A stretch of 64,000 nt of DNA. Origin: an uncultured Gammaproteobacteria bacterium (GTDB lineage Bacteria; Patescibacteriota; Patescibacteriia; UBA2591; UBA6264). Under the pieces are notes generated by a model that did not search any database, was not told the DNA's origin, and was given only the letters and a program-made list of their open reading frames with translations. The translations under genes were made by a program, and so were the position numbers. Below, piece after piece: positions 2,300 to 53,871 of the stretch (position 1 is its first letter; each line of letters opens with the position of its first letter). The stretch is taken from contig CAZOLB010000001.1 of NCBI GenBank assembly GCA_964580825.1, positions 3,066 through 67,065 on the forward strand, written 5' to 3'.

Positions 2300-4444
2300 T
2301 CAATATTCTTCGTCAGAAGAAGATTGAGTATATACTTCTCTTGGCTTGGCGCCGTCCGCCGGACCAATCGTCCCCTCTTCCTCTAATAAATCCAATAAGC
2401 GAGCGGCTCGAGCATAGCCAATCCGCAATCTCCGCTGAAGCAACGAAGCTGACGCTTTGCCAATTTGAAGAATCACCTCGCGAGCCTGAGGCAGCATTTC
2501 ATCCTCTTTTAACTCCCCCTTGGATCCCATAATCATCGACGACTGAGGCTCGATAATTTCTTGATTAAAATTGTATTCCGCCCCTTGAGCTAAATACTCT
2601 GTTAATCTCCCGACTTCTTCGTCGGAAACATAAGCGCCTTGGAGCCTTCTCGGTTTGGAAATTTCCGGCGAAATGAAAAGCATATCTCCCCTCCCCAAGA
2701 GTTTCTCTGCGCCGGCAAAATCCAGAATAGTTCTCGAATCAACCGCCGAAGCCACGGAAAAAGCCACCCTCGAAGTAATATTGGCCTTAATCAGTCCGGT
2801 AATAATATCCACTGACGGCCTTTGAGTCGCCATTACCAAGTGGATGCCCGTCGCTCTGGCCATTTGAGTTAACCTGATAATACAACCCTCGACCTCATGA
2901 GGCGCGGTCATCATTAAATCAGCCAATTCATCGACAATAATGACAATATAAGACAATTTTTTATCGGGATTCGCTTGGTTATAAGCGCTGATATCTCTTT
3001 TTTTGGCTTCGGACATAATCTCAAAACGACGCTCCATTTCGGTAATAGCCCATTTTAAAGCATTGATTGTTTTATCCACCTCAGTAATCACCGGAGTCAA
3101 TAAATGCGCCAAATTATTATAAAGAGTCAATTCGACTTTTTTGGGGTCGACAAGAATAAAACGCAATTCGTCGGCGAAATTTTGATAAACCAAACTGATA
3201 ATGACCGAATTTAAAAATATAGTTTTTCCCGAACCTGTAGCCCCGGCCACCAATAAATGAGGCATTTTCCCTAAATCAGCCAACCAAATATTACCCGAGA
3301 CATCCCGTCCCAAAGCGAGAGTTAGATTCGACTTTCTTTTCTTAAAAACCTCGCTATCCAAAATTTCCCTTAATCTGATAATCGCCACTTTTTGATTGGG
3401 AACTTCAATACCCACAAGAGATTGTCCCGGAATAGGAGCCTCAATACGAATAGGATGAGCAGCTAAAGCCATAGCCAAATCATTGTGAAGGGCGGTAATC
3501 TGAGATAATTTTATCCCCTCGGCCGGCTTTAACGTATATTGAGTAACCGTTGGACCCACTTTAACCTCCCCCATTTCTACCGGAATAGAAAAACTCTCCA
3601 AAGTTTTTTTTATTATCTCTTTATTTTCTCTAATGTCGCCGGCGTTAGGCTTGGTTGAGGTTTGTTCCAAAAGATTAAAAGGAAGATTAACTCTCTGATA
3701 AACTTTGGGAGGGGCGGTTAAAAATTCCTTTTCTTCGCCTTTCTTTTCTTTTTTAATCTTAATTCTAGTGAAAATAGATTCCGATTCTCTTGTTTTTTCG
3801 GCCGTTTCAATCACCTCCGACTGAATAACCATTTTCTTCTTTTTTTTGAAAATTAACAAAATCCTTTTTAGGATTCGGCGGAACGAATTTTCTTCGGTTA
3901 ATACTTCTTCATCGCTTTTACCCTGCCGCGCTTTGATTAAATCGCCAAAAACAATGACCATTAAAACAGCGAAAATGCCGGCAAAAACCACCCAACTAGC
4001 CCAAAACCCGAATGTTCCAACTACAATATAACTTAAACCATACCCAATATATCCGCCGCCTTGAAAATTTTGCAAAGCCGATTTATCATCAACAAAATAA
4101 ATATGCAATACGCCCGCTAAAACCGCCACTAACAAAACCAGCCCTAAAAACCTGCTTCTAAATCTAATTCTTAAATCCCCTTCTTTAAACTTATAATAAT
4201 TAAGACTTAGCAAGCCGGCAATCAACAAAACAATGGGAACAAACCATTTAGCAGCGCCAAAAAGAATCTCCAATCCCAAAACTAAAAATTCGCCGATAAT
4301 ACCCGCTAAATTAAAAAGCCCCAAAATCAGAACAATAGCGGCCGTAATAAAGATAATGGCGAATATCTGTTGTTGGAGTGGTGAAAAACTAAAAAAAATA
4401 GACCTCTTTTTCCTCTCATTTTTATGAGATTTCACTTTGGACAT
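2300..4444 (-). CDS. ftsK: DNA translocase FtsK/SpoIIIE
   Basis: 714 aa. Four or five N-terminal TM helices precede a linker and the FtsK motor domain (LLVAGATGSGKTIFLNSVI Walker A; VDELADLMM Walker B). The C-terminal gamma winged-helix is present (GYARAARLLDLLEEEG). Confidence 0.9.
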   Translation of the reverse strand: MSKVKSHKNERKKRSIFFSFSPLQQQIFAIIFITAAIVLILGLFNLAGIIGEFLVLGLEILFGAAKWFVPIVLLIAGLLSLNYYKFKEGDLRIRFRSRFLGLVLLVAVLAGVLHIYFVDDKSALQNFQGGGYIGYGLSYIVVGTFGFWASWVVFAGIFAVLMVIVFGDLIKARQGKSDEEVLTEENSFRRILKRILLIFKKKKKMVIQSEVIETAEKTRESESIFTRIKIKKEKKGEEKEFLTAPPKVYQRVNLPFNLLEQTSTKPNAGDIRENKEIIKKTLESFSIPVEMGEVKVGPTVTQYTLKPAEGIKLSQITALHNDLAMALAAHPIRIEAPIPGQSLVGIEVPNQKVAIIRLREILDSEVFKKRKSNLTLALGRDVSGNIWLADLGKMPHLLVAGATGSGKTIFLNSVIISLVYQNFADELRFILVDPKKVELTLYNNLAHLLTPVITEVDKTINALKWAITEMERRFEIMSEAKKRDISAYNQANPDKKLSYIVIIVDELADLMMTAPHEVEGCIIRLTQMARATGIHLVMATQRPSVDIITGLIKANITSRVAFSVASAVDSRTILDFAGAEKLLGRGDMLFISPEISKPRRLQGAYVSDEEVGRLTEYLAQGAEYNFNQEIIEPQSSMIMGSKGELKEDEMLPQAREVILQIGKASASLLQRRLRIGYARAARLLDLLEEEGTIGPADGAKPREVYTQSSSDEEY

Positions 4445-13224: not shown

Positions 13225-14045
13225 CAACTAATGCAACGTTAAACGTTGCACCTTTATTGCACCTTGCTACTCTAATATATATTTGGTAATATCCTCAAAA
13301 TCATCTTTAAACCATTTATCAATAAAATCTTCATAACCCTCAAAACCATTTTTATCAAATTCTACCTCGAATAATTCTGAAACTGTCTGATAATCAATTA
13401 AAAGTGAATGACGCTTACCCATATAGTCCAAATGAGCTGACCATTTATATGAATCAGTAAACTGTCTTATCTTAACACGATCCTGGAGACGATGTTCTTT
13501 CCAGTTTGGTTCGACCAACTTCGCATGGTTCAAATTAATATACCTTAACAAAACCATCGCATATTTAATATCTTTAACACCAATAGACTGGTAAGAATTT
13601 TGAAATAAACGACCACGTCTTTCATGTCGAGCATTAAAATATTTAGTATAAGCATTAGCAATCCTATTCATATATTTCGAGATTCCACCATCTATTAAAG
13701 AAATTAAGATGAAATGGAAATGATTTGGAAGGAGATTCCAAGTAATAAAAGTAGTTAAAGGAGATGATTCTCTGTTGTAAAAACTTTCAGGCGGCTCTTC
13801 GCTGGTTAATATTGCTTCAGCTGCTTGTATGGTTTCCTTTTGGGTCATATTCCTCTTGGGACTCCCTATTCTGTATACCCACATTAGAAATATAAAACGG
13901 CAATACTCGGCATAATCGTTGAAAATCTTACGTTCCTCCGTTCCGTGGTTAAATATATGAAACGGAATTTCTGCTTTTGTAAAATATTGACGCATAAATA
14001 AAATTGAATATTTATTATTCAATGCAACGTTTAACGTTGCATTAT
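13225..14045 (-). mobile_element. IS200/IS605-like (RAYT-like) insertion: HUH tyrosine-transposase gene bounded by two palindromic hairpins
   Basis: The left end carries TGCAACGTTaAACGTTGCA (13232-13250). The right end carries AATGCAACGTTtAACGTTGCATT (14021-14043). They are near-identical perfect palindromes and bracket a Y1-transposase ORF. The element sits between a housekeeping gene and a tRNA gene. Confidence 0.6.
13267..13995 (-). CDS. tnpA: IS200/IS605-family HUH (Y1) transposase, REP-associated tyrosine transposase-like
   Basis: It carries the HUH motif (NHFHFILI) and a catalytic-Tyr motif (FQNSYQSIG, compare the WQxSYY of IS200 TnpA). There are about 100 aa of C-terminal extension. 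The start is assigned to the ATG at 13995 (MRQYF…), because the ORF-track start at 14088 would run through the right-end hairpin. Confidence 0.65.
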   Translation of the reverse strand: MRQYFTKAEIPFHIFNHGTEERKIFNDYAEYCRFIFLMWVYRIGSPKRNMTQKETIQAAEAILTSEEPPESFYNRESSPLTTFITWNLLPNHFHFILISLIDGGISKYMNRIANAYTKYFNARHERRGRLFQNSYQSIGVKDIKYAMVLLRYINLNHAKLVEPNWKEHRLQDRVKIRQFTDSYKWSAHLDYMGKRHSLLIDYQTVSELFEVEFDKNGFEGYEDFIDKWFKDDFEDITKYILE

Positions 14046-14093
14046 TTTCTGGCACGCCAAATGCTCGCGAGAAAACTTTCACCCCCACACCAA

Positions 14094-17550: not shown

Positions 17551-18567
17551 CTATTTACAAGCCGGTTCGCTATGATTTTTCCCGTTTATCTTATTGAATA
17601 AATGGCCCCCGAGATAATAAAATAATATTAAAATACCCAAAATGACAAAACTAAAATCAATTAATCTCGTCAATAAACTAAAACTCAACCCCGTTTCGGC
17701 GGTAGAATGAAACCACTGAAAAACCAAAGTGTTCGTACCTTCAAGAACTCCTAAGTTGGCCGGAAGAGGAACAAATCCGGCAACCACCATCAAAATTCTC
17801 ATTACCATTCCGCTGAATAATGAACAAGATTCTCTTAAAAAACTTAAAAAAAGCATCACTTGACAAACGCTGGCAAAAAAACTTAAAGCGGTAAATACCA
17901 TAATCGGACCGAGTTGCGAAAGAGGCCTCTCAAAGAAAACCGTAACGCTATGGCCGATACCTCGTAAATTTTCTCCGTTCCTTCTCACATATTCCAATTT
18001 TTCCAGACGGAAAATTTTGATTAAAAAATTTAGTATTCTCTCCAATCCGGGAAATTTAAAAATAAAAAAAAGTAAAAAAACAGGCAAAGACACTAAAATA
18101 GCCAAAAACAAAACAGCATTCAAATTTCTTTCCAAAAAGAAAATAATAATCCCGATAAAAATAAAAAGGCAAAAACCGATAATATCAAACAATCTGTCGA
18201 GGATAATCGAGACGACTCCTTTAGACAGGGATATATTAAAAAATTTCTTTAAAACAAAAATCCTAACGCCTTCGCCGCCCCAATAAATACCGGGGGTAAG
18301 ATAGCTGACAGCAAACTCTCCCAATCTGGCCGCGGCTAATTTTCTAAAAGGCAAATTTCCAAAACCCATCGTCCTTAATACTATTCGCCAACGAATTATC
18401 CAAAAAATAATTTTAAAAAAAGTCAGAATAAAAAGCGCCGCCATCTGCCACAAAAGCAAATCGCTAAATCTTAACAAAACACCTTTAAGACCGATGTGTT
18501 GATAAATCCAGACGGTTAAAAACACACCCACTATCAACGAAACGCTAAACAAAATAATTTTTCTCAT
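17551..18567 (-). CDS. Integral membrane protein, lysylphosphatidylglycerol-synthase-TM / UPF0104 (flippase-like) family
   Basis: 338 aa with about 8 predicted TM helices. The N-terminal R/K-rich loops and overall pattern (…WRIVLRTMGFGNLPFRKLAAARLGEFAVSYLTPG…) resemble LPG_synthase_TM-type proteins. The call rests on similarity only. Confidence 0.5.
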   Translation of the reverse strand: MRKIILFSVSLIVGVFLTVWIYQHIGLKGVLLRFSDLLLWQMAALFILTFFKIIFWIIRWRIVLRTMGFGNLPFRKLAAARLGEFAVSYLTPGIYWGGEGVRIFVLKKFFNISLSKGVVSIILDRLFDIIGFCLFIFIGIIIFFLERNLNAVLFLAILVSLPVFLLFFIFKFPGLERILNFLIKIFRLEKLEYVRRNGENLRGIGHSVTVFFERPLSQLGPIMVFTALSFFASVCQVMLFLSFLRESCSLFSGMVMRILMVVAGFVPLPANLGVLEGTNTLVFQWFHSTAETGLSFSLLTRLIDFSFVILGILILFYYLGGHLFNKINGKNHSEPACK

Positions 18568-18602: not shown

Positions 18603-20099
18603 TTACTCTTGCTTATCTTTAAATGACTTTAAGCATTGCCGACAATAAACGGGCCTGATTCCATCGGGAATAAAGGGAACATAAATTTCTAGGCCGCATT
18701 TATCGCACTTCGACTTATATTTATTTGTTTCAATTTCCCTAATCTCTCCTTGCTTTTTCCCCTCCTTCCTCTTCTCTTTGGAGATCCCGAGCCAACGGCC
18801 TATTTTCTGCTCAACCAACCCCTGCGGTTCTGTATAACGTTCTCGCGAAATTTTTATTATCTTATCTTTATTTTCTTCCGGCTTCAGAGAAGACTCCGAT
18901 ATTCTGGCAAAAATAGGGTCGGAAATAGCGCCATTAACCGCCATTTTAACAAACAATTCATATCTCTTTAAATTAGCCAATTTATTTTTATTGAAACGTC
19001 GGCGCGCAACTTCCTTAGACAAAGATAAAGCGTCTTCGGCGTTCACTTTATAAGCGAGAATCGTTCCAATGTTATTAAAAATTGCATCTTTAATTCTCAA
19101 ATTCCGCTTTGTTTCGCTCAATTGCCCAAGATACTGATGCGCCAGGATTAAATTTACATAATGTTTATTTTCTTGAGAAATCATCTCTTTAAAAGAATCG
19201 GTAATCAGATCGGAGAACTCATCAATATATAAATAAAAATCGCGACGTTGATTTTCGGAAACACTAAGCCGCTCTATGGCAATCATCTGAATTTTTGTCA
19301 CCAACATCGCCCCGAAAAATGCGGCTATTTCTTCCCCAACTATCGCTTTTGACAAATTTACTATTAAAATTTTCTCTTTATTGATAACTTCATCGATGTC
19401 AACTTTCGAGCTAACTTGTCCGGCAATATTTCTCACTAAAGGAATAGAGAAAAAAGCGCCAATTTTCTCTTGTATGGGGATTATAACTTCAGTTCGTAAA
19501 CGCTCATCATATCGCGGATATTCCTTCTCCCAAAACGCTTTTACTCCCTCGTCGCTTACTCTCTCTACCACCTTCCGCCTATATTCTTCGTCGAGCAACA
19601 TTCTTTTAACACCTAAAAGTGTTGGGGACTGATATTCCAATAAAGCTAAAATAATATTGCGCAACACATGGATCACACGAGGATTAGGCAATTCACTTTT
19701 AATTTTCTCCAAAGCCGCAACAAGATTCGAAACAACCAAAAAATGCTGATAATTTCCCCCGACTCCCTTTAAAATATTAAAAGAAAAAGGATTTTTTACG
19801 TCCGCAAGATTAAGATAAATCGTATCATTAACGCGAGAAGAAGGAATAAAATCCACTACCCTTTTAGCCAAACCGCCATAAAAATCAATTAAAGCGACGC
19901 CATGGCCGGATAAAATGTCCTGACAAATCATTTTTTCCATCGTCCTTGACTTGCCGCTTCCCGCTACACCAATCAAATACATATGCCGCCGGCGGTCTTC
20001 CCTTTTAAGGCCCAGTTCGCGCCGAGGACCGTCGCCCTCCGTTTTGGCAAAAAAAACTATATCTTTTACTTCTTCTCCCTCTTTTTCGACTTCTACCAT
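18603..20099 (-). CDS. FtsK/HerA-superfamily P-loop ATPase (type IV coupling-protein/DUF87-like) with C-terminal Cys4 zinc ribbon; paralog 1 of 3
   Basis: Walker A is present (HMYLIGVAGSGKSRTM), as is Walker B (FYLYIDEFSDLI) and a downstream AHQYLGQL motif. The C-terminus is CDKCGLEIYVPFIPDGIRPVYCRQC. It has no TM helix. It is clearly paralogous to the ORFs at 48562 and 50296. The start is moved to the ATG at 20099 to avoid overlap with the upstream gene. Confidence 0.7.
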   Translation of the reverse strand: MVEVEKEGEEVKDIVFFAKTEGDGPRRELGLKREDRRRHMYLIGVAGSGKSRTMEKMICQDILSGHGVALIDFYGGLAKRVVDFIPSSRVNDTIYLNLADVKNPFSFNILKGVGGNYQHFLVVSNLVAALEKIKSELPNPRVIHVLRNIILALLEYQSPTLLGVKRMLLDEEYRRKVVERVSDEGVKAFWEKEYPRYDERLRTEVIIPIQEKIGAFFSIPLVRNIAGQVSSKVDIDEVINKEKILIVNLSKAIVGEEIAAFFGAMLVTKIQMIAIERLSVSENQRRDFYLYIDEFSDLITDSFKEMISQENKHYVNLILAHQYLGQLSETKRNLRIKDAIFNNIGTILAYKVNAEDALSLSKEVARRRFNKNKLANLKRYELFVKMAVNGAISDPIFARISESSLKPEENKDKIIKISRERYTEPQGLVEQKIGRWLGISKEKRKEGKKQGEIREIETNKYKSKCDKCGLEIYVPFIPDGIRPVYCRQCLKSFKDKQE

Positions 20100-20121
20100 A
20101 GTGGTTATTATACCATTTTCT

Positions 20122-21243
20122 TTATTTTTTTTCAACCGTCTTTTTAAAACCAAACTGCCGAAAGGAAAAGAAAACAATTAAACAGCTAGCTAAGGCAATT
20201 AAAAAAAACAAAGCAATCACTTTGCCCGTAGTCCTGGCAAATAAGGAAATAAATCCAAAAAAAACCGCAACTAACCAATAAAAGATAGCTGTCCCGCGAT
20301 GTGAAAATCCAATGTTTAATAAGCGGAAATGGAGATGTTTCTGATCACCTGAAAACGGCGAACGATGTTCAATAAAAATTCTTTGAATAACCACGCTAAT
20401 AAGATCGATGATTGCCAAGCCGAGAATTAAAAAAGTGGTTGCCAATTTGCCGCCTGAAATTATTGCCAAAATTCCCAATATAAAACCGGCAAAAAGACTC
20501 CCTCCTTCGCCTAAAAAAATCTTTGCCGGATGGAAATTAAAAACCAAAAATCCTAAACCAGCGCCGGCTAAAATCAAGGCCATTATTCCAATGTCAGGCT
20601 GATAAAACCTGGTTAAAAAACAAAGTCCGGCAATAGTTAAAGATCCGATAACCGTCATTCCCGAGACCAAGCCATCCAGTCCGTCGAGCAATTTGGTGGC
20701 ATACATTAAAACCATTAACCAAATAAAAGTTATAATATCAGCAAGAGGCGTAAAATAATATGGAATTCCGTTTAGACGGATTATCTCAATTTTTACCTTG
20801 TCAAAATATAAATAACCTTCTCTTAAAGGATTATTAATAAACTCAATGCCGATGCCGCTGGCAATAACCGCCAAACAAGCCAAAATCGGCCAAATAATCT
20901 GTTTCTGCGGTTTTACATTGTATTTATCATCTAAAAACCCCCCGACCATTAAAAACAAGCCGGCAATAAATATGCCCGCTAAATGTTTAATTGGGATTTT
21001 CCTGATAAATCCGCCTAATTCCGGAATTAAATTCCAGGGGTTAAAATAAATAATAAACAAAACAATAAAGAAAACGATGAAAATAGCCGTCCCGCCTAAA
21101 AGAGGCGTCGCTTCACGATGAATTTTACGCTCTATCACTCCCGCATAATCAAGAATTCGCCATTTTATAGCCAAACGGCGAATCAAAAAAGTAAAAACAA
21201 CCGAAAGAATAAAACCAATTAAAAATAAAATTAAGAACAACAT
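20122..21243 (-). CDS. Polyprenyl-phosphate N-acetylhexosamine-1-phosphate transferase (MraY/WecA, glycosyltransferase family 4)
   Basis: 373 aa with about 10 TM helices and the cytoplasmic loop motif GGFLDDKYN. This is family-level similarity; MraY versus WecA/TagO is not resolved. Confidence 0.65.
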   Translation of the reverse strand: MLFLILFLIGFILSVVFTFLIRRLAIKWRILDYAGVIERKIHREATPLLGGTAIFIVFFIVLFIIYFNPWNLIPELGGFIRKIPIKHLAGIFIAGLFLMVGGFLDDKYNVKPQKQIIWPILACLAVIASGIGIEFINNPLREGYLYFDKVKIEIIRLNGIPYYFTPLADIITFIWLMVLMYATKLLDGLDGLVSGMTVIGSLTIAGLCFLTRFYQPDIGIMALILAGAGLGFLVFNFHPAKIFLGEGGSLFAGFILGILAIISGGKLATTFLILGLAIIDLISVVIQRIFIEHRSPFSGDQKHLHFRLLNIGFSHRGTAIFYWLVAVFFGFISLFARTTGKVIALFFLIALASCLIVFFSFRQFGFKKTVEKK

Positions 21244-28389: not shown

Positions 28390-28698
28390 CTATATTATTT
28401 CTTTACATTTTCGACAAAACCTTTTTTTCGCGCCATCGGCTAGTATTTTATAACCCACCCTTATCGCCTTTTTACATCGAGGACAGACGAGCATAATATT
28501 TGAAGCCGCCAAAGGCATGGCCATTTTGATTTTTTGCCCCTTTTCCCCTTCTCTTTTAGGCCGAATATGTTTAGTGACTAAATTCATCCCTTCCACTACC
28601 ATTCTCCCCTCTTTACTCAAAACCTTAAGCACCCGCCCTTTCTGGCCGCGGTCTTTACCTGTCAAAATCTCGACTATATCGTCTTTTTTAATACGCAT
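28390..28698 (-). CDS. rplX: 50S ribosomal protein L24 (KOW), C-terminus carrying four Cys in a zinc-ribbon arrangement
   Basis: The KOW motif is present (KKDDIVEILTGKDRGQKGRVLKV). The C-terminus NIMLVCPRCKKAIRVGYKILADGAKKRFCRKCKEII aligns to the normal L24 tail but with CxxC…CxxC. Confidence 0.85.
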   Translation of the reverse strand: MRIKKDDIVEILTGKDRGQKGRVLKVLSKEGRMVVEGMNLVTKHIRPKREGEKGQKIKMAMPLAASNIMLVCPRCKKAIRVGYKILADGAKKRFCRKCKEII

Positions 28699-38316: not shown

Positions 38317-39807
38317 TTATTTTTTATCTGTCTGTTCGACTCTTTTTTGCCTTTGCAGAATTTGAACGACAAAAAATGCGATCAAAACGTACAGAATAAT
38401 AGCAATGATAAAATGAACTTTGCCGAAAGTAAAAGAAAGTCCGGGAATAGCGGATAAAAACTTCACTAAAAGAATAGTATACGTAAGAATTAGCCAACTG
38501 GGCCAAATTAAAATTTTAGCCAAGCCGACAACTCCGCCTAAAAAGAAAATAAAACCGAAAGCCATGCCAATCGGCAAAACCGGCAAAATCAAAATATTTG
38601 CCAAAACAGCGATTAAAGATAAATTTCCGAAATAATATAAAATCAAAGGAAAAACAAAAAGTTGAGCCGATAAACTCGCGCTTAAATAATGGCGTAGAGG
38701 GAAATAATGAAAATTAGGAATTTTTTGAAAAAGAGAATTAAAATAACTCCCCATTAAAGACATGCCTAAAACGGACATGAAAGACAGCTGGAAACCCACG
38801 TCTGATTTCAAAAGTTTGGGATTGAATAAAAGCATTAAAAAACCAGAAAAAACCAGTATTCTAAAAAAATCTTTGGGTCGGCCAATTTTCATCGCGTAAG
38901 CCGTTGCCAAACCCATAATAACCGCCCGTATCGCTGAAGGCGGCGCGCCGACTAAAACAACAAAAACAAAAATAATCGCAAAAATCAAATAAAACGCTTT
39001 TGAACGACGAAGATGCAGCGTTGTTACGAAAAAATACGAAAGCAAGGCGCAAAGCACACTGATATGCAAGCCGGAAACGGCCAAAATATGAGATACTCCC
39101 GCCCGGCTAAATTCGGCGCGTAAATCTTGAGGAATTTCACGCTGCCGGCCAAGCAATAAAGCCGATAAAATCGACCCCTGGGGTTCGGAAAAATTCAAAT
39201 CAATCAAACGCTCAAATTTATTTTTAACCACCAAAATCTTTGAATAAACATCCGAAACTTCGGATTTCTTTAAAATTTTGATTTCCGGCCAATAGCAAGT
39301 CGAATAAACGTCATAACGGGCCAGATACTCATAATAATTAAAATTTGCGAAAACTCCCGGTTCGTTTAATTGGCAATTTATTTCCACCAGATCCCCATAC
39401 TGGTAATCGGAATAAAGAGGAATATCAACCAACACCCTTCCTTGAAGCGGCAGATTTCCTAAAATTATATCGCCGATTGTAATTTTAATTTCATCAACCC
39501 TTTGATCGGGCTCTTTAATTACTTTTCCCCGAAAAACGACCCGAGAACCGTTATAATAAGAAATATGAGATTGGTCTATTTTAGGAAAACTTATTTGATA
39601 ACGAAATACGCCAAAAATGAAAAATAAAATTAAAAAAATTGCCGGCGAGATTCTCTTAGTGGGCAAAATCACCAGCCAAACAATCAAAAATAACAAAAAT
39701 AAAGGAATATAGACAAAAAACGGAAGAGATAAAAAAGAAGAAACGCCGACGCCAAGAATAAAAAAAATCAAGGACCAAGTAATGATTTTTGAAGTAAGGA
39801 TATTCAT
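38317..39807 (-). CDS. comEC: ComEC/Rec2 N-terminal part: DUF4131 (OB-fold) plus polytopic competence channel domain
   Basis: 496 aa. There are two N-terminal TM helices and a soluble OB-like segment. About 8 TM helices follow, with the competence-domain pattern (…RAGVSHILAVSGLHISVL…). Confidence 0.75.
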   Translation of the reverse strand: MNILTSKIITWSLIFFILGVGVSSFLSLPFFVYIPLFLLFLIVWLVILPTKRISPAIFLILFFIFGVFRYQISFPKIDQSHISYYNGSRVVFRGKVIKEPDQRVDEIKITIGDIILGNLPLQGRVLVDIPLYSDYQYGDLVEINCQLNEPGVFANFNYYEYLARYDVYSTCYWPEIKILKKSEVSDVYSKILVVKNKFERLIDLNFSEPQGSILSALLLGRQREIPQDLRAEFSRAGVSHILAVSGLHISVLCALLSYFFVTTLHLRRSKAFYLIFAIIFVFVVLVGAPPSAIRAVIMGLATAYAMKIGRPKDFFRILVFSGFLMLLFNPKLLKSDVGFQLSFMSVLGMSLMGSYFNSLFQKIPNFHYFPLRHYLSASLSAQLFVFPLILYYFGNLSLIAVLANILILPVLPIGMAFGFIFFLGGVVGLAKILIWPSWLILTYTILLVKFLSAIPGLSFTFGKVHFIIAIILYVLIAFFVVQILQRQKRVEQTDKK

Positions 39808-48561: not shown

Positions 48562-50154
48562 CTAACGACGAGGGCGTGGAGGATTATCTTTTTTAAATTC
48601 TATACCTAATTCCGAGAGTTCAGCAACGCCGCTTGTATTTCTATAAGATGTTCTCATTTGGGGGTTTTTGATTATTGGTTTGACTTCGCCACTTTTTATT
48701 TTTTCCAAACAATCATGACAATAGACCGGTCGGCGTGAGTCTGGCTTAAAAGGCACTTTAGTTTCCTTTTTGCAAGCCGAACATTCGGCCAAATAAAGCC
48801 CTGAAGCCGTAGTGCTTATCCCACTACTCCACTCCCTAATTTCATCTTCAATCTCCTGTCGAGGCCGGGTATAAAGACGGCGAGACGTCTCAATCAACTT
48901 CTGAGGATCCACTACTCTATCTTCTTTTAATTCAAAAGGGGGCATAGTCTTAGCTGAAAAAGGACGGCTAGTAACGCTGTTAACCATTAATTTAATATAA
49001 ATGCGATAGTTGGGTAAATTAACGATATCTTGGGCGGTAAACTCCGGACTAAATTCTTTTTCTAAAAACTCGGCATCGGCTGCGCCAACCCGAAAAGAAA
49101 TCATCGTGCCAACGTTGCCAAAAACCGAATCGCGAACTGTCGAAGACGATTCCGTGCTTAACTGTCCGATATATTGATGAACAATAGTCAAGTTGAGATA
49201 ATATTTTCGCGCTTCAGAAAGAATGCCGGCAAACGACTCAGTCACAAAATTTTGAAATTCGTCAACATACAAATAAAAATCTTTGCGTTCTTTTTCGGGA
49301 ATACGCACTCGCTCCATGGCGGAAAGCTGAATTTTAGTAATCAACATCGCTCCCAACAAAGCCGAATTATCTTCACCGATTCTCCCCTTGGAAACGTTAA
49401 CTAAAAATATCTTTCCTTTATTCATAATGTCGAAAAGGTCGATAGTGCTTTCTTTTTGTCCGACCACATTACGCACTAGAGAGGTGGAAAGAAACTGTCC
49501 GACTTTATTTTGAATCGGCGCGATCGCTTCACTCCTAAAACTGTCTTTCCATTCTTCATATTCATTAATCCAAAACGCTTTAACTACAGGGTCTTTAAGA
49601 TTTTTAACAATCATTTGTCTATATTCTTTATCAACTAATAACCTCGGTATTCCCAAGAGGGTCGTATTCGGCGTATCCAAAAGGGCCAAAATGGCATTAT
49701 TAAGAATATATTCCATTCTCGCTGACCAAACATTAGCCCAAAGTTTAGTAAAAATCCCCATTAAGCCAGAGGCGACTAAATGTTTATATTTTGGGTCGGG
49801 TAGGGCTAAAATATTGAAGCCAGCATGATAATCTGTATCGGCGGGATTAAAATAAATAACGTCTTTTTCTCTTTTTGTGGGTATTTTTTTTAAAATCGAC
49901 TCGACTAATTCGCCATGAGGATCAATGACACAAACCCCCTCGCCATTCATAATATCCTGCAAAATCATATTATGGATAAAAACCGATTTACCAGTACCGG
50001 TTTTACCGACCACGTACATATGTTGGCGCCTATCTTTTCTTTTAATGCCAAAAATTCTTTCGGTGTTGCGAAAGTCCGTTTTGGCTAAATAAATAATATC
50101 TTTATTTTCCTCTCCGGCCCCGAGAGAATTGCTATTTTTATTTTCTTCTGCCAT
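48562..50154 (-). CDS. FtsK/HerA-superfamily P-loop ATPase (coupling-protein/DUF87-like) with C-terminal Cys4 zinc ribbon; paralog 2 of 3
   Basis: Walker A RQHMYVVGKTGTGKSV, then VIDPHGELV. Walker B is FYLYVDEFQNFV, followed by TIVHQYIGQLS. The C-terminus is CSACKKETKVPFKPDSRRPVYCHDCL. It has no TM helix. Confidence 0.7.
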   Translation of the reverse strand: MAEENKNSNSLGAGEENKDIIYLAKTDFRNTERIFGIKRKDRRQHMYVVGKTGTGKSVFIHNMILQDIMNGEGVCVIDPHGELVESILKKIPTKREKDVIYFNPADTDYHAGFNILALPDPKYKHLVASGLMGIFTKLWANVWSARMEYILNNAILALLDTPNTTLLGIPRLLVDKEYRQMIVKNLKDPVVKAFWINEYEEWKDSFRSEAIAPIQNKVGQFLSTSLVRNVVGQKESTIDLFDIMNKGKIFLVNVSKGRIGEDNSALLGAMLITKIQLSAMERVRIPEKERKDFYLYVDEFQNFVTESFAGILSEARKYYLNLTIVHQYIGQLSTESSSTVRDSVFGNVGTMISFRVGAADAEFLEKEFSPEFTAQDIVNLPNYRIYIKLMVNSVTSRPFSAKTMPPFELKEDRVVDPQKLIETSRRLYTRPRQEIEDEIREWSSGISTTASGLYLAECSACKKETKVPFKPDSRRPVYCHDCLEKIKSGEVKPIIKNPQMRTSYRNTSGVAELSELGIEFKKDNPPRPRR

Positions 50155-50295
50155 AGCTAATATTATAACCTCTTTATTTTATTAAGACAACTATTTTATC
50201 GCTTTTAAAAAATAAAAAGGGATTAAACTCCCAAAAAACCGATAACAATATCCGCCAAGTATCATAACAAAATGACATTAAAATTAAAACGATTA

Positions 50296-51759
50296 CTAAA
50301 TGAGAGGTCGGGGATTGTCAGTATCTTTCTTATCTTCTTTACCGCTTTCGCTTGAGCCTTCTTTTTTTTCTTTAATCGCCGCTTTTTCTTGAGCGCTTCG
50401 CAAAATTTGCGCTTCTTCTTCCTCAATTAATTTTTTTGCCGCATCGGCAGAAATACTATACTTGCGTCGAGAAGATTCGATAATTTCCTCTTTATACGAT
50501 GGGTGATTAGGGGACAAGACGCTTAAAGTTTGGGCGGAAAAGGGATCATAGGACTCGCCATTAATCATCAATTTAATATAAAATTCCCTTTTACCCAAAT
50601 TAATCATATCTTTGGCTTTAAAAATCGGGGCCATATCCGATTCCAGCGCTCCCGCATCGTCGCCGCCGACTCGAAAAATAATAATCGTAGCCACATTGCC
50701 CAAAACCGAAGCCTGTACTCGCGGCAAAAGTTGACTCAAATATTGGTGGGCGACTGTCAAACAAATGCCATACTTTCTTGACTCCGACAATAAATTCTCA
50801 AACGTCTCGGTTACCAAATTATGAAACTCATCAACATATAAATATAATGGCTTTCTCTCTTTTTCCGGAATATTCGCCCTTCCCATGCCGGCTTGTTTGA
50901 TTTTAGTGACAAATATCGAGCCAAAGAAACTGGAATTCTCCTCTCCCAACCTACCCTTGGAAAGATTAATAAAAATTATTTTTTCTTGATTCATTAATTT
51001 TTCTAAATCTACCTTATTCTCTTTTTGTCCAAAAATATTCCTCAACATCGGGTCGGCTAAAAATTGTCCGAGTTTATTGACTAAAGGAATAATAGCGTCG
51101 GTATCGAATTTTTCCGACCAATCGGCAAACTCAATCGCCCAAAAACGTTTAACCATATCGTCGGTTATATACTCGACCACTTTCTGGCGATAATTACGGT
51201 CAGTAAGCAGAGAAATCATCCCCCTCATCGTCGCATAAGGATAATCCAGAAGAGCCAAACAGGTAAAACGGAAAACGTGTTCCAGGCGCGGTGTCCAATT
51301 AGCGCCAAATTGTTTTTTTATCACTTCGATTAAACCTTGGGTTAATTGAAATTTGAAGCCTGGATCGACGTTAGATAAAGGATTAAAAGAAACGGGGTGC
51401 TCATTGTCGGAAGGGTCAATTAATACCACGTCGTCAATCCTTTCCTTGGGAATAAAGTCCAAAAGAAGCTCAATAACGTCACCGTGGGGGTCGATAAAAC
51501 AAACTCCCTTGCCATAAGCAATATCCTGACGAACAAGAAGTTCCAAAAGTTTTGATTTTCCCACACCGCTCTTGCCAATAATATAAATATGGCGATCTCG
51601 ATCTTCGCGTTTTATTCCAAAAACAAACAGTTTCTCTTCAAGGGCGGCCACATAATTTGTCCGCCCGATAAAAGAAACGTCTTTTGGATCAACGTTCCCC
51701 AATACCGGCAACTCCGGCGGCGGCGGAGCGTAACGAATAATCTGAATTTTTTCAGCCAT
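50296..51759 (-). CDS. FtsK/HerA-superfamily P-loop ATPase (coupling-protein/DUF87-like); paralog 3 of 3, without zinc ribbon
   Basis: Walker A RHIYIIGKSGVGKSKL, then FIDPHGDVI. Walker B is LYLYVDEFHNLV, followed by TVAHQYLSQL. The C-terminal tail is acidic and K-rich instead of Cys4. It is collinear with paralogs 1 and 2 over about 400 aa. Confidence 0.7.
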   Translation of the reverse strand: MAEKIQIIRYAPPPPELPVLGNVDPKDVSFIGRTNYVAALEEKLFVFGIKREDRDRHIYIIGKSGVGKSKLLELLVRQDIAYGKGVCFIDPHGDVIELLLDFIPKERIDDVVLIDPSDNEHPVSFNPLSNVDPGFKFQLTQGLIEVIKKQFGANWTPRLEHVFRFTCLALLDYPYATMRGMISLLTDRNYRQKVVEYITDDMVKRFWAIEFADWSEKFDTDAIIPLVNKLGQFLADPMLRNIFGQKENKVDLEKLMNQEKIIFINLSKGRLGEENSSFFGSIFVTKIKQAGMGRANIPEKERKPLYLYVDEFHNLVTETFENLLSESRKYGICLTVAHQYLSQLLPRVQASVLGNVATIIIFRVGGDDAGALESDMAPIFKAKDMINLGKREFYIKLMINGESYDPFSAQTLSVLSPNHPSYKEEIIESSRRKYSISADAAKKLIEEEEAQILRSAQEKAAIKEKKEGSSESGKEDKKDTDNPRPLI

Positions 51760-51874: not shown

Positions 51875-52531
51875 TTATTTTTCTGGCAAAGCACCCAATT
51901 CTTTTAAAAAATTCTCGAAGGCCATTACCGCTATTTTTGCTTCCGTCTCGCTAACTGCGGAGCCAGAAACATGAACCAAACCATTCCGAAGAATATGGGC
52001 GTCCCAAACGCCATTCAAACTTTTCACGTCAGAAATAACATGCGATAGGCGTTCGGCCATATAATCGCCGGCATATCCCGCTTTTTTTAGAAAATTATCC
52101 ACTAAAGCATCTGCTTCAATAATCGCCAATTTCAAATTGGACGGAGTCGGCAAAGATAATTTATTTTTTACTTTTTGCCATTGGCTTACAAATTTTTTGT
52201 CCACGTAAACAACTTTTTCCCTCTCTTCTTTTAACCAATGGAAAAGTTTAATTTTATGTCTTAATGGCCAAACTTTGGTAAAAACATATAATATGCAAAA
52301 AATCAATAAAATGTCCAAAATAATTATACAAGGACGAGCCGTATATCGCCAAAAAACCAAGAAATTCTGAAACCATTCATATTTTCCCAGGGGAAAATTC
52401 AAAATAGAAGCAATATCGGTCATGAATACCGCGCCAATCGCGATAAAAAACACAATAAATAAAAATATGACATACCACATAAAAATCCGATTAAATAATA
52501 AACCAATAAGATTCTGTTTCTCTCTCCTCAA
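51875..52531 (-). CDS. Hypothetical membrane protein (2-3 N-terminal TM helices plus about 110-aa cytoplasmic domain)
   Basis: Hydrophobic segments IFMWYVIFLFIVFFIAIGAVFM and IIILDILLIFCILYVFTKVW. No recognisable family. It is co-directional with, and 12 nt from, the upstream 442-aa gene, and 115 nt upstream of the ATPase pair. Confidence 0.4.
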   Translation of the reverse strand: MRREKQNLIGLLFNRIFMWYVIFLFIVFFIAIGAVFMTDIASILNFPLGKYEWFQNFLVFWRYTARPCIIILDILLIFCILYVFTKVWPLRHKIKLFHWLKEEREKVVYVDKKFVSQWQKVKNKLSLPTPSNLKLAIIEADALVDNFLKKAGYAGDYMAERLSHVISDVKSLNGVWDAHILRNGLVHVSGSAVSETEAKIAVMAFENFLKELGALPEK

Positions 52532-52542
52532 ATTAAATTCTT

Positions 52543-53871
52543 TTATTGCCCAAATTTTTCTAAGGCTTTTTCTTCGCCAAAAATTGGCAATCCGACTTCC
52601 GGCGCCACTTTACGCCCTTCCAACCTTTGAATATAAGGAGTGACCATTACAGCGCTTGTTGGCGGATGAAAGAGAGTGGCAACCGCCCTTACTGTCAATT
52701 TAACAACTCTTGAATGAAAATTCCAATTTAAAAAATGAGAAGTTAAAATTCGACCCATAAACGTTTCTTCGGGCATTTCTCGTCTCCGATAAAATGATAG
52801 AATCCGCTCTTTACGCAATTTATTGCGGGACTTTGGAAAGATATACGGACTTACCCAAATTTTCGTTCTCGTGCTCATTCTGTGATTCTGCCGAAAAGAA
52901 TTTAAATTAGGCGCAGCATATTGATTAAAAGCTCCAATCAATCCTCGACGGGCATAACTATCAAAAAAAATTGTCTGGGGAGAAATATAAACAAAACGAA
53001 TTAAAGTATCAAAGGCTTGACTGGAAAGATTTTCATCTATTGATTTAATGGCAGCAACCTCCCCCGGGGTGCTTGGTATTTTTTCAATTTTCGATTCTCC
53101 GTCTTTTGTCGTTCCCGTTTTAATTTCTTTTGGTTTTTGCAAATCCCTAATAAACTTTTCCCATCGTTTATTCCAATTGGGTTCAGCCGGCGCGATATTT
53201 ATCTGAATGCCGACCATTTCTCCGTCTCTTACTTCGCCCAAAACTTCCAAAAATGAAGAAATTGGATCAGCCGCTTCTTTTTCTTTCCCCTCAAATTCAT
53301 TATACATTTTAATGGGATAAGCCTCCGGCCGGGCAAGAACTATTTCGCTTCCCCATAAACCAAGGCCTTTTTTTTCTAAATCATTTACATCTTTAGGCAA
53401 AGAAGAAATATAATCTTCCACCTCCACTATCTCTATTTCCGTATAATATGAAAGAAAGGCGGCTTTAACTAAATCCTTTTGTCTTTTTTCCGTTCTAATG
53501 TAGAAATGAATTTTACCGGCAAGACTAACCATTTCAAGGGTAAACCACTTGGTTATTTCTCCTTTCCAATATCTCTCGCTAACATCTTCAGGCCAATTTC
53601 GCAACCCCCAAATCGCCTTTAAAGCTTGCTCCATACTCGCGGGACTCCTTGAAATCTCTCTGGGAATTAATATTTCCATAAGCACGTACTCCCTGCTTCT
53701 TTTATAAAGAGTCTGCCGCCAAAAAAGCCAAATTGAATGATTAATCGGCAATAAAATAATAAAAAGCAAAAACCACCAGGTTTCGCTTAAAAATAAATAA
53801 ATAAAACGCCAGATATCCGTCGGTATGTTTAAAAAAACATCGAATAATTGTTGATGTATTGCCTCGTTCAT
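52543..53871 (-). CDS. Hypothetical membrane-anchored protein (N-terminal TM hairpin plus about 380-aa soluble domain)
   Basis: The TM region is IWRFIYLFLSETWWFLLFIILLPINHSIWLFW. The large soluble region has no motif I can assign. It is the first gene of the co-directional block 53871 to 48562. Confidence 0.4.
   Translation of the reverse strand: MNEAIHQQLFDVFLNIPTDIWRFIYLFLSETWWFLLFIILLPINHSIWLFWRQTLYKRSREYVLMEILIPREISRSPASMEQALKAIWGLRNWPEDVSERYWKGEITKWFTLEMVSLAGKIHFYIRTEKRQKDLVKAAFLSYYTEIEIVEVEDYISSLPKDVNDLEKKGLGLWGSEIVLARPEAYPIKMYNEFEGKEKEAADPISSFLEVLGEVRDGEMVGIQINIAPAEPNWNKRWEKFIRDLQKPKEIKTGTTKDGESKIEKIPSTPGEVAAIKSIDENLSSQAFDTLIRFVYISPQTIFFDSYARRGLIGAFNQYAAPNLNSFRQNHRMSTRTKIWVSPYIFPKSRNKLRKERILSFYRRREMPEETFMGRILTSHFLNWNFHSRVVKLTVRAVATLFHPPTSAVMVTPYIQRLEGRKVAPEVGLPIFGEEKALEKFGQ

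Follow-up and report, generated by a model that had tools for sequence, protein, structure and literature searches.

A soluble VirD4/TrwB-like ATPase with a predicted zinc finger, and the putative split coupling protein of its Patescibacteria family

The ATPase gene and its paralogs

The 64,000-nucleotide (nt) stretch of Patescibacteria DNA analyzed here (contig CAZOLB010000001.1), which we refer to as the window, has a G+C content of 38% and carries on its minus strand a gene, gene A, for a P-loop ATPase related to VirD4 and TrwB. Its product, paralog A, is made up of a nucleotide-binding domain with an all-alpha domain, a basic linker and a C-terminal module predicted to be a zinc finger, and two paralogs, B and C, are encoded elsewhere in the window. 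The features of gene A are listed here, with the structural limits taken from an AlphaFold2 (AF2) model.

18603..20099, minus strand: gene A, an open reading frame (ORF) translating to 498 amino acids (aa), ATG at 20099 and stop at 18603
20107..20135, minus strand: promoter-like element TTGAAA-17-TATAAT (11/12), its -10 box ending 7 nt before the ATG at 20099
19947..19970, minus strand: Walker A motif GVAGSGKS, residues 44-51; G44, G49 and K50 invariant in the 79-sequence family alignment
19872..19892, minus strand: LIDFYGG, a degenerate form of the (V/I)DPHG motif of the family (P73F, H74Y)
19380..19772, minus strand: all-alpha domain inserted in the nucleotide-binding domain, approximately residues 110-240 (AF2 helices 117-240; TrwB alignment)
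19215..19238, minus strand: Walker B motif FYLYIDEF, residues 288-295; Asp-Glu kept, D293 invariant and E294 at least 90% conserved
18624..18719, minus strand: predicted zinc finger CxxC-x17-CxxC (PF23477 zf_Tbcl_2/TIGR04272), residues 461-492, the four Cys within 18633-18707

A plus-strand reading of 18603-20099 is riddled with stop codons and was ruled out. A longer form of A starting with a TTG at 20177 was also discarded: it overlaps the upstream gene, the N-termini of homologs align at the ATG at 20099, and the promoter-like element lies upstream of that ATG.

Judging by its motifs and its modeled structure, A is a soluble VirD4/TrwB-like ATPase with the fold of a type IV coupling protein (T4CP). 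The Pfam model PF10412 (TrwB_AAD_bind) matches residues 32-330 of A at 24.0 bits, against a cut-off of 20.5 that B and C exceed more clearly (45.5 and 42.0 bits), and B and C are also matched by T4SS-DNA_transf and TraG-D_C (PF10412, PF02534 and PF12696 have matches across the paralogs). When a profile of 79 family members was compared with all PDB sequences, it matched TrwB best (E 8e-8) and also DotL. The AF2 monomer model (pLDDT 89, pTM 0.83) shows a helical domain inserted into a RecA-type core, followed by a low-confidence, disordered basic linker at residues 445-457 and then the zinc-finger unit. A Foldseek search of the PDB with this model returned TrwB first (E 2e-12, TM-score about 0.5-0.6), with TrwB chains filling the first 20 ranks (E about 2e-12 to 2e-11) over approximately 420 alignment columns, and then HerA, DotL, Cag-beta and DndH-C. 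Furthermore, A retains the Walker A motif GxxGxGKS, the Asp-Glu of Walker B, the HQY..QL motif and all 40 invariant positions of the family.

The NCBIfam equivalog models for TraD and VirD4 all score far below their cut-offs, with sub-threshold TraD, VirD4 and CedD matches only, and A is thus a distant member of the T4CPs. As in TrwB of R388 and the VirD4/TraD/TraG coupling proteins, an all-alpha domain is inserted in its P-loop domain, and as in TraD, where the tail is functional, a tail follows the ATPase. Unlike the TrwB-type T4CPs, the A chain has no N-terminal transmembrane domain (hydropathy plots, including the N-termini, show no transmembrane helix in A, B or C), it has no linkage to a type IV secretion system (T4SS) or a relaxase (neither VirB4 nor a relaxase is found among the annotated ORFs of the window), it lies in housekeeping surroundings, its tail is a zinc finger, and its identity to TrwB in the fold alignment is only about 13-15%. 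Two other assignments were rejected. As an FtsK/SpoIIIE translocase A reaches 12.6 bits with PF01580 (cut-off 24), and as a HerA helicase 15.5 bits with PF01935 (DUF87; cut-off 23.2), with HerA structures ranking below TrwB at lower TM-scores.

Paralog A has diverged considerably. It deviates from the family at 51 of the positions that are at least 90% conserved, compared with 18 deviations in B and a family median of 4. Among these are P73F and H74Y, which bear out a sequence-only reading of this DNA in which the IDPHG motif of A was called degenerate; the nearest ortholog of A (P0002) has IDPYG, and most of the family has DPHG. Another is R351K, which replaces the Arg of the FRVG motif. In relatives from the same clade (P0003, P0020, P0027 and P0032) the Walker B Asp-Glu has become DN or DG, and Walker A is drifting.

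The paralogs B and C form a tandem on the minus strand, within a cluster that also encodes DUF8128 (Pfam PF26449) and a small protein with two transmembrane helices (2-TM protein). The gene order at this locus is DUF8128, 2-TM protein, C, B.

48562..50154, minus strand: paralog B, 530 aa, with the zinc finger; the copy closest to the family consensus
50296..51759, minus strand: paralog C, 487 aa, the same ATPase without the zinc finger; in tandem, upstream of B
51875..52531, minus strand: small 2-TM protein between DUF8128 and C (hydropathy)
52543..53871, minus strand: DUF8128 (PF26449), an N-terminal membrane helix and an alpha/beta domain with a VirB4-like fold

The sequence-only reading had described A as a third paralog with the same order of motifs, and this is what the alignments give: by BLASTP, A and B are 41% identical (E 2e-135), A and C 36% (E 5e-101) and B and C 44% (E 3e-129), and the three proteins align collinearly with their motifs in the same order. 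All three match TrwB_AAD_bind/VirD4-type models, and none falls in a different established family. The C-terminal Cys4 module, said to be shared, is a genuine domain of A (18633-18707, CDKCGLEIYVPFIPDGIRPVYCRQC) and of B (48709-48783, CSACKKETKVPFKPDSRRPVYCHDC, as had been written), and the claim holds for these two only: a six-frame scan of the window finds the module in A and B and not in C.

DUF8128 and a putative split coupling protein

Among the 78 related genes with enough upstream sequence, 63 have a DUF8128 gene directly upstream on the same strand, and in 47 loci the gap is 30 nt or less. The structural model of DUF8128 (pLDDT 91) has a 58-residue N-terminal helix, and its fold resembles VirB4 outside the P-loop domain; on the basis of this model, the VirB4-like part most likely represents the VirB4 N-terminal domain. 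By sequence search neither DUF8128 nor the 2-TM protein has a match in our local Pfam copy, NCBIfam or PADLOC, and a DUF8128 profile compared with PDB sequences gave only a chance match; what could be learned came from the fold comparison and from precomputed PF26449 annotations.

The relationship between DUF8128 and the ATPase becomes clear in Actinobacteria. On plasmids, one of the closest relatives of B is an Embleya protein of 812 aa, with the ATPase as its C-terminal half. Compared with its single N-terminus, the DUF8128 profile gives a weak hhalign match (probability 5%, E 0.007) and 24.6 bits with HMMER. In precomputed Pfam annotations, 117 of the 120 best homologs of this Embleya protein, which are actinobacterial and about 800 aa long, carry PF26449 and PF10412 in one chain. 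These fusions, for example those from Embleya and Streptomyces, are named 'type IV secretory system conjugative DNA transfer family protein'; their N-terminal half is PF26449, the order of their domains is the order of the genes in Patescibacteria, and their ATPase part is 31-34% identical to B. Since the two are fused in actinobacterial T4CPs, the Patescibacteria module appears to be a split T4CP. The fusion thus identifies DUF8128 as the N-terminal half of one T4CP class, the part that would provide the membrane anchor, and in Patescibacteria this half has a gene of its own. The actinobacterial proteins differ in that one polypeptide takes the place of two genes, in that no zinc finger is listed in any of them and in that the Embleya cluster lies on a plasmid. 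Within this comparison the finger is therefore an addition in the Patescibacteria branch.

Streptomyces chromosomes and plasmids commonly encode the fused DUF8128-T4CP form. On the Embleya plasmid NZ_CP108778 (275390-288547, L092) it stands in a T4SS-like order: PrgI/VirB3, an ATPase, the DUF8128::T4CP fusion, a replication-relaxation protein and NlpC/P60.

Anchoring of a soluble coupling protein in trans has a precedent. TraJ of pIP501 is a T4CP without a membrane domain, for which a separate small protein with two transmembrane helices, TraI, has been proposed as the anchor (PMC12857230, a review). The B/C operon likewise includes a 2-TM protein, a likeness of description; the two cases differ in that pIP501 is a plasmid conjugation system with a relaxase and in that the candidate anchor here is approximately 440 aa long with a VirB4-like fold. 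The 2-TM protein occupies the same position at three other loci (L072, 306-869; L083, 4117-4650; L088, 5255-5905). In the soluble domain at its C-terminus, the sequence AHILRNGLVH shows an Rx4H pattern that recalls HEPN.

VirB4 N-terminal-domain-like modules that stand apart from the ATPase are also known from TrsD and from CedB/CedD. Patescibacteria have many TrsD homologs beside VirB4, and CedB and CedD each have part of the VirB4 N-terminal-domain fold. DUF8128 is likened to these proteins by fold, and unlike TrsD it pairs with a VirD4-type ATPase and not with VirB4.

Zinc finger, family and genomic context

The zinc finger had been regarded as unusual and specific to this subfamily, a view that the following results contradict. 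It is the catalogued domain PF23477/TIGR04272, which lies above the cut-offs in both A and B; in A the scores are 41.7 bits for the Pfam model (cut-off 27, E 9.2e-11) and 42 bits for the NCBIfam model (cut-off 36, E 5.4e-11). The Cys spacing in A is CDKC-x17-CRQC, and in the AF2 model the finger consists of two beta-hairpins and a helix (pLDDT 91-95). We compared a 36-column profile of the module with 1.84 billion representative proteins, and 6019 representative protein clusters matched at E <= 1e-3. Among the best 150 of these, 148 lack the ATPase and are small and basic; the 150 have a median length of 211 aa, 127 have two copies of the module and a few have up to five, approximately 20% of the residues are Lys or Arg, and 119 contain RGG/GDR-type motifs. 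Thus, by its sequence distribution, the finger is a promiscuous module and no signature of the ATPase family, and the basic RGG/GDR-rich proteins in whose company it is found suggest that it binds nucleic acids.

For two M. mazei members of TIGR04272, zinc binding has been demonstrated by inductively coupled plasma mass spectrometry (PMC12704099). These proteins share the domain model with A and B and are small and stand-alone; unlike them, A has a single TIGR04272 finger at the end of an ATPase, and its zinc binding is predicted. The proteins P0121-P0270 form a large uncharacterized class, small, basic and rich in RGG/GDR, with two to five tandem CxxC-x17-CxxC fingers, and two ATPases of the family (P0126 and P0214) have two to three fingers within long low-complexity tails. 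A second pattern in the window, CxxC-x19-CxxC in a ribosomal-protein region (28405-28485, minus strand; CPRCKKAIRVGYKILADGAKKRFCRKC), differs from the PF23477 motif. We found no literature under the names DUF8128, PF26449, PF23477 or TIGR04272.

The ATPase family itself is already catalogued, and A is one more, unusually diverged member of it; what is new here is the putative split-T4CP architecture, the VirB4-like fold modeled for DUF8128 and a conserved promoter with a predicted leaderless mRNA. With A as the query, over 3000 homologs were retrieved. PF23477 occurs together with VirD4/TrwB-type T4CP domains in each of the best 120 (118 have PF10412), and wherever one of these 120 carries an organism name, it is that of a Patescibacteria lineage. 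Like the named homologs, the genes of the window indicate a Patescibacteria (CPR) genome. NCBI names the homologs 'type IV secretion system DNA-binding domain-containing protein', and at least 598 loci of the family are present in GTDB species-representative genomes. A published census counted 5,713 VirD4-type homologs in 2,918 Patescibacteria genomes, about two orphan genes per genome, and described them as orphan T4CPs whose role is unknown, leaving exaptation open (PMC12102498). The presence of three paralogs, which had been read as a notable investment for a reduced genome, is therefore only slightly above the norm. Relaxases are rare in Patescibacteria (109 in 103 genomes; PMC12102498), and the T4SS of S. 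epibionticum has no recognizable coupling and relaxase proteins according to the Cell 2023 paper, in which the terms VirD4 and VirB4 are not used.

Searches of phages and plasmids yielded no close copy on a mobile element. The relatives found there are distant (23-38% identity) and are carried by plasmids that are mostly non-mobilizable, among them Bacillus plasmids (281 records), and by the large Bacillus phages G and CP-51. A Sulfitobacter plasmid copy (L091; 395 aa, 37.5% identity) lacks both anchor and finger and lies among transposases.

The promoter-like element upstream of A has counterparts at the orthologous loci L001, L003, L005 and L011, where TTGACA is followed after 16-17 nt by TATAAT, TATAGT or TATACT and then, after 6-9 nt, by the ATG; as background, 18 ORFs among 349 others show the same arrangement. 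No Shine-Dalgarno sequence precedes the A ATG, and with a -10 box 7 nt from that ATG, we predict from sequence that A is transcribed independently into a leaderless mRNA. With a near-consensus promoter that is conserved in orthologs and so close to the ATG, co-transcription of A with the upstream MraY-like gene, which had been suggested, is not the simplest reading. Upstream of B, in 50155-50295 (minus strand), TTGTCT-17-TATAAT (10/12) likewise ends 7 nt before the ATG, and a similar element is found at L056 and L088; C and DUF8128 show no element of this type. Both finger-bearing paralogs may thus be leaderless.

The immediate neighbors of A are two genes for membrane proteins, which are as previously described and whose envelope context is conserved in the orthologous loci.

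20122..21243, minus strand: Glycos_transf_4 (MraY/WecA-type) membrane transferase, upstream of A (Pfam)
17551..18567, minus strand: LPG_synthase_TM-family membrane protein, downstream of A, starting 35 nt past its stop (Pfam)

A terminator scan found no terminator between A and the LPG_synthase_TM gene, and in L003 and L004 the latter shares 4 nt with the A-type gene. In a neighbor-joining tree, A falls in a monophyletic clade tied to the Glycos_transf_4 context, with the order RuvX, Glycos_transf_4, A, (LPG_synthase_TM), AlaRS at L001-L005, L011 and L012. The synteny with Glycos_transf_4 is conserved, and any functional link between it and A is putative. In the same tree the C-type copies, which lack the finger, branch off deeply as a clade of their own and are always found upstream of a B-type gene, and B groups with copies from C-B type tandems. 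About 11 DUF8128-linked genes also have AlaRS within approximately 5 kb on their downstream side, and in L015 and L022 AlaRS follows directly. Since AlaRS lies downstream of both A-type and DUF8128-linked genes, the position of A may be ancestral, and its envelope neighbors may reflect history rather than function. The loci with AlaRS downstream of a DUF8128-linked ATPase gene come from many lineages, which hints at a gene order of long standing, and include L015, L022, L026, L027, L036, L041, L077, L081 and L089. Elsewhere in the window, in a housekeeping block, the ORF between a Mur ligase gene and scpB encodes a Y1 transposase domain of IS200-like type (13267-14088, minus strand) and could be a mobile element or a domesticated copy.

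Possible roles of the ATPases

The reading toward which we lean, with moderate confidence, is that A is a cytoplasmic, fast-evolving and anchorless T4CP-like ATPase of a core-genome family whose standard form, represented by B, is a split coupling protein docked on DUF8128, that it works as a ring motor and that its finger recruits a nucleic-acid substrate. In this mechanism the separate, conserved promoter of A would yield a leaderless mRNA, and the protein would form a TrwB-like ring, by itself or together with B and C. The ring would dock at the membrane through DUF8128. The zinc-finger tail, standing in place of the substrate-receptor tail of conjugative T4CPs, would recruit the substrate, and ATP would drive the handover or pumping of what we presume to be a nucleic acid or nucleoprotein, with the direction of transport equally presumptive.

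Several observations weigh against this reading. The Foldseek TM-scores of DUF8128 against VirB4 are low (0.3) and cover only part of VirB4. No DUF8128 gene adjoins A, and the window contains a single one; the docking of A at the membrane is an assumption. Nucleic-acid binding by the finger is suggested by context, and the finger could equally bind protein. The family tree is a neighbor-joining tree with no support values. The substitutions P73F, H74Y and R351K, together with the loss of the Walker B Glu in relatives, indicate that A may be a weak ATPase. Lastly, the T4CP homologs of Patescibacteria are mostly far from virB4, with 148 of 5,713 nearby, and the T4CP homolog of S. epibionticum is dispensable whereas its T4SS is essential (PMC12102498).

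It is conceivable, though in our view rather unlikely, that A is no independent motor at all and instead serves as a catalytically weakened regulatory or structural subunit of hetero-oligomeric rings of B and C. The 51 deviations, with the altered DPHG motif and R351K among them, would fit such a role, as would the DN/DG Walker B and drifting Walker A of the A clade, the long branches of the A subclade and the fact that A lacks a DUF8128 of its own, whereas B and C share one. In A itself, however, the Walker A motif, the Walker B Asp-Glu, HQY..QL and all 40 invariant positions are intact, and its strong promoter is independently conserved. We consider it unlikely that A is a genuine coupling protein of a Patescibacteria T4SS, supplying protein or DNA substrates to a VirB4 channel whose gene would lie in another part of the genome. 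Homology in sequence and fold to TrwB, DotL and Cag-beta speaks for this possibility, PrgI/VirB3 and a relaxation protein accompany the fused relatives in a T4SS-like cluster, and t4cp genes are often located away from virB4 (PMC12102498). Yet the small number of homologs near virB4, the scarcity of relaxases and the dispensability of the S. epibionticum homolog all argue against it, the annotated ORFs of the window include neither VirB4 nor a relaxase, and the genes of the family lie in housekeeping surroundings whose synteny is conserved.

The envelope context had led to the idea that A acts with the MraY/WecA-type transferase and the LPG_synthase_TM protein in the export of envelope glycolipids or lipids, which we regard as very unlikely. 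The order Glycos_transf_4, A, LPG_synthase_TM at L001-L004 and L012 is consistent with this idea, and it probably also holds at L011, where LPG_synthase_TM and AlaRS profiles both match the ORF that follows A; the gene overlap at L003/L004 and the terminator-free junction in the window point the same way. Nevertheless, A has its own promoter, LPG_synthase_TM is absent from that position in L005, the 63 of 78 family genes noted above are linked to DUF8128 and not to envelope genes, and the presence of AlaRS downstream of A-type and DUF8128-linked genes alike suggests inherited synteny. Moreover, we know of no T4CP/FtsK-type ATPase that acts on lipid-linked glycans. It is most improbable that the paralogs replace FtsK in chromosome segregation or form a HerA-type anti-phage defense, although they belong to the FtsK/HerA superfamily, match HerA and the PADLOC mad8/HerA models weakly and, in the case of A, are encoded near ScpA/ScpB and RuvX genes. 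A replacement of FtsK was rejected because a canonical and complete FtsK, with 4TM, alpha, motor and gamma domains, is encoded in the same window (2300-4444, minus strand). A defense system was rejected because the PADLOC matches reflect generic similarity of the ATPase domain only; DUF8128 and the 2-TM protein have no defense match, and a broad spread in Patescibacteria with stable synteny is atypical of defense islands. With A, B, C and FtsK, the window encodes four ATPases of the FtsK/HerA superfamily.

The preferred reading, a DUF8128-docked split coupling protein with a fast-evolving anchorless member in A, can be extended in one speculative direction, to which we assign a small probability. 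DUF8128 and the soluble zinc-finger T4CP might together form a T4SS-independent nucleic-acid motor of the core genome, serving for example as the cytoplasmic ATPase that draws in DNA via ComEC in natural transformation, a functional analog of ComFA, or in the export of DNA or RNA to the host; the window contains a ComEC gene at 38317-39807. Extra paralogs such as A may then be specialized copies, separately transcribed, that use the same dock for a different cargo or at a different time.

These findings give the orphan VirD4-like genes of Patescibacteria a defined architecture, in which the ATPase would be one half of a T4CP and the product of the linked DUF8128 gene its membrane half, and they give a Pfam domain of unknown function a structural relationship. 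They also name candidate partners, namely DUF8128, the 2-TM protein and the paralogs, and, in the zinc finger, a candidate module for the recognition of cargo. The architecture thus bears on whether reduced epibionts use a T4CP-type motor for the traffic of DNA or RNA outside classical conjugation.

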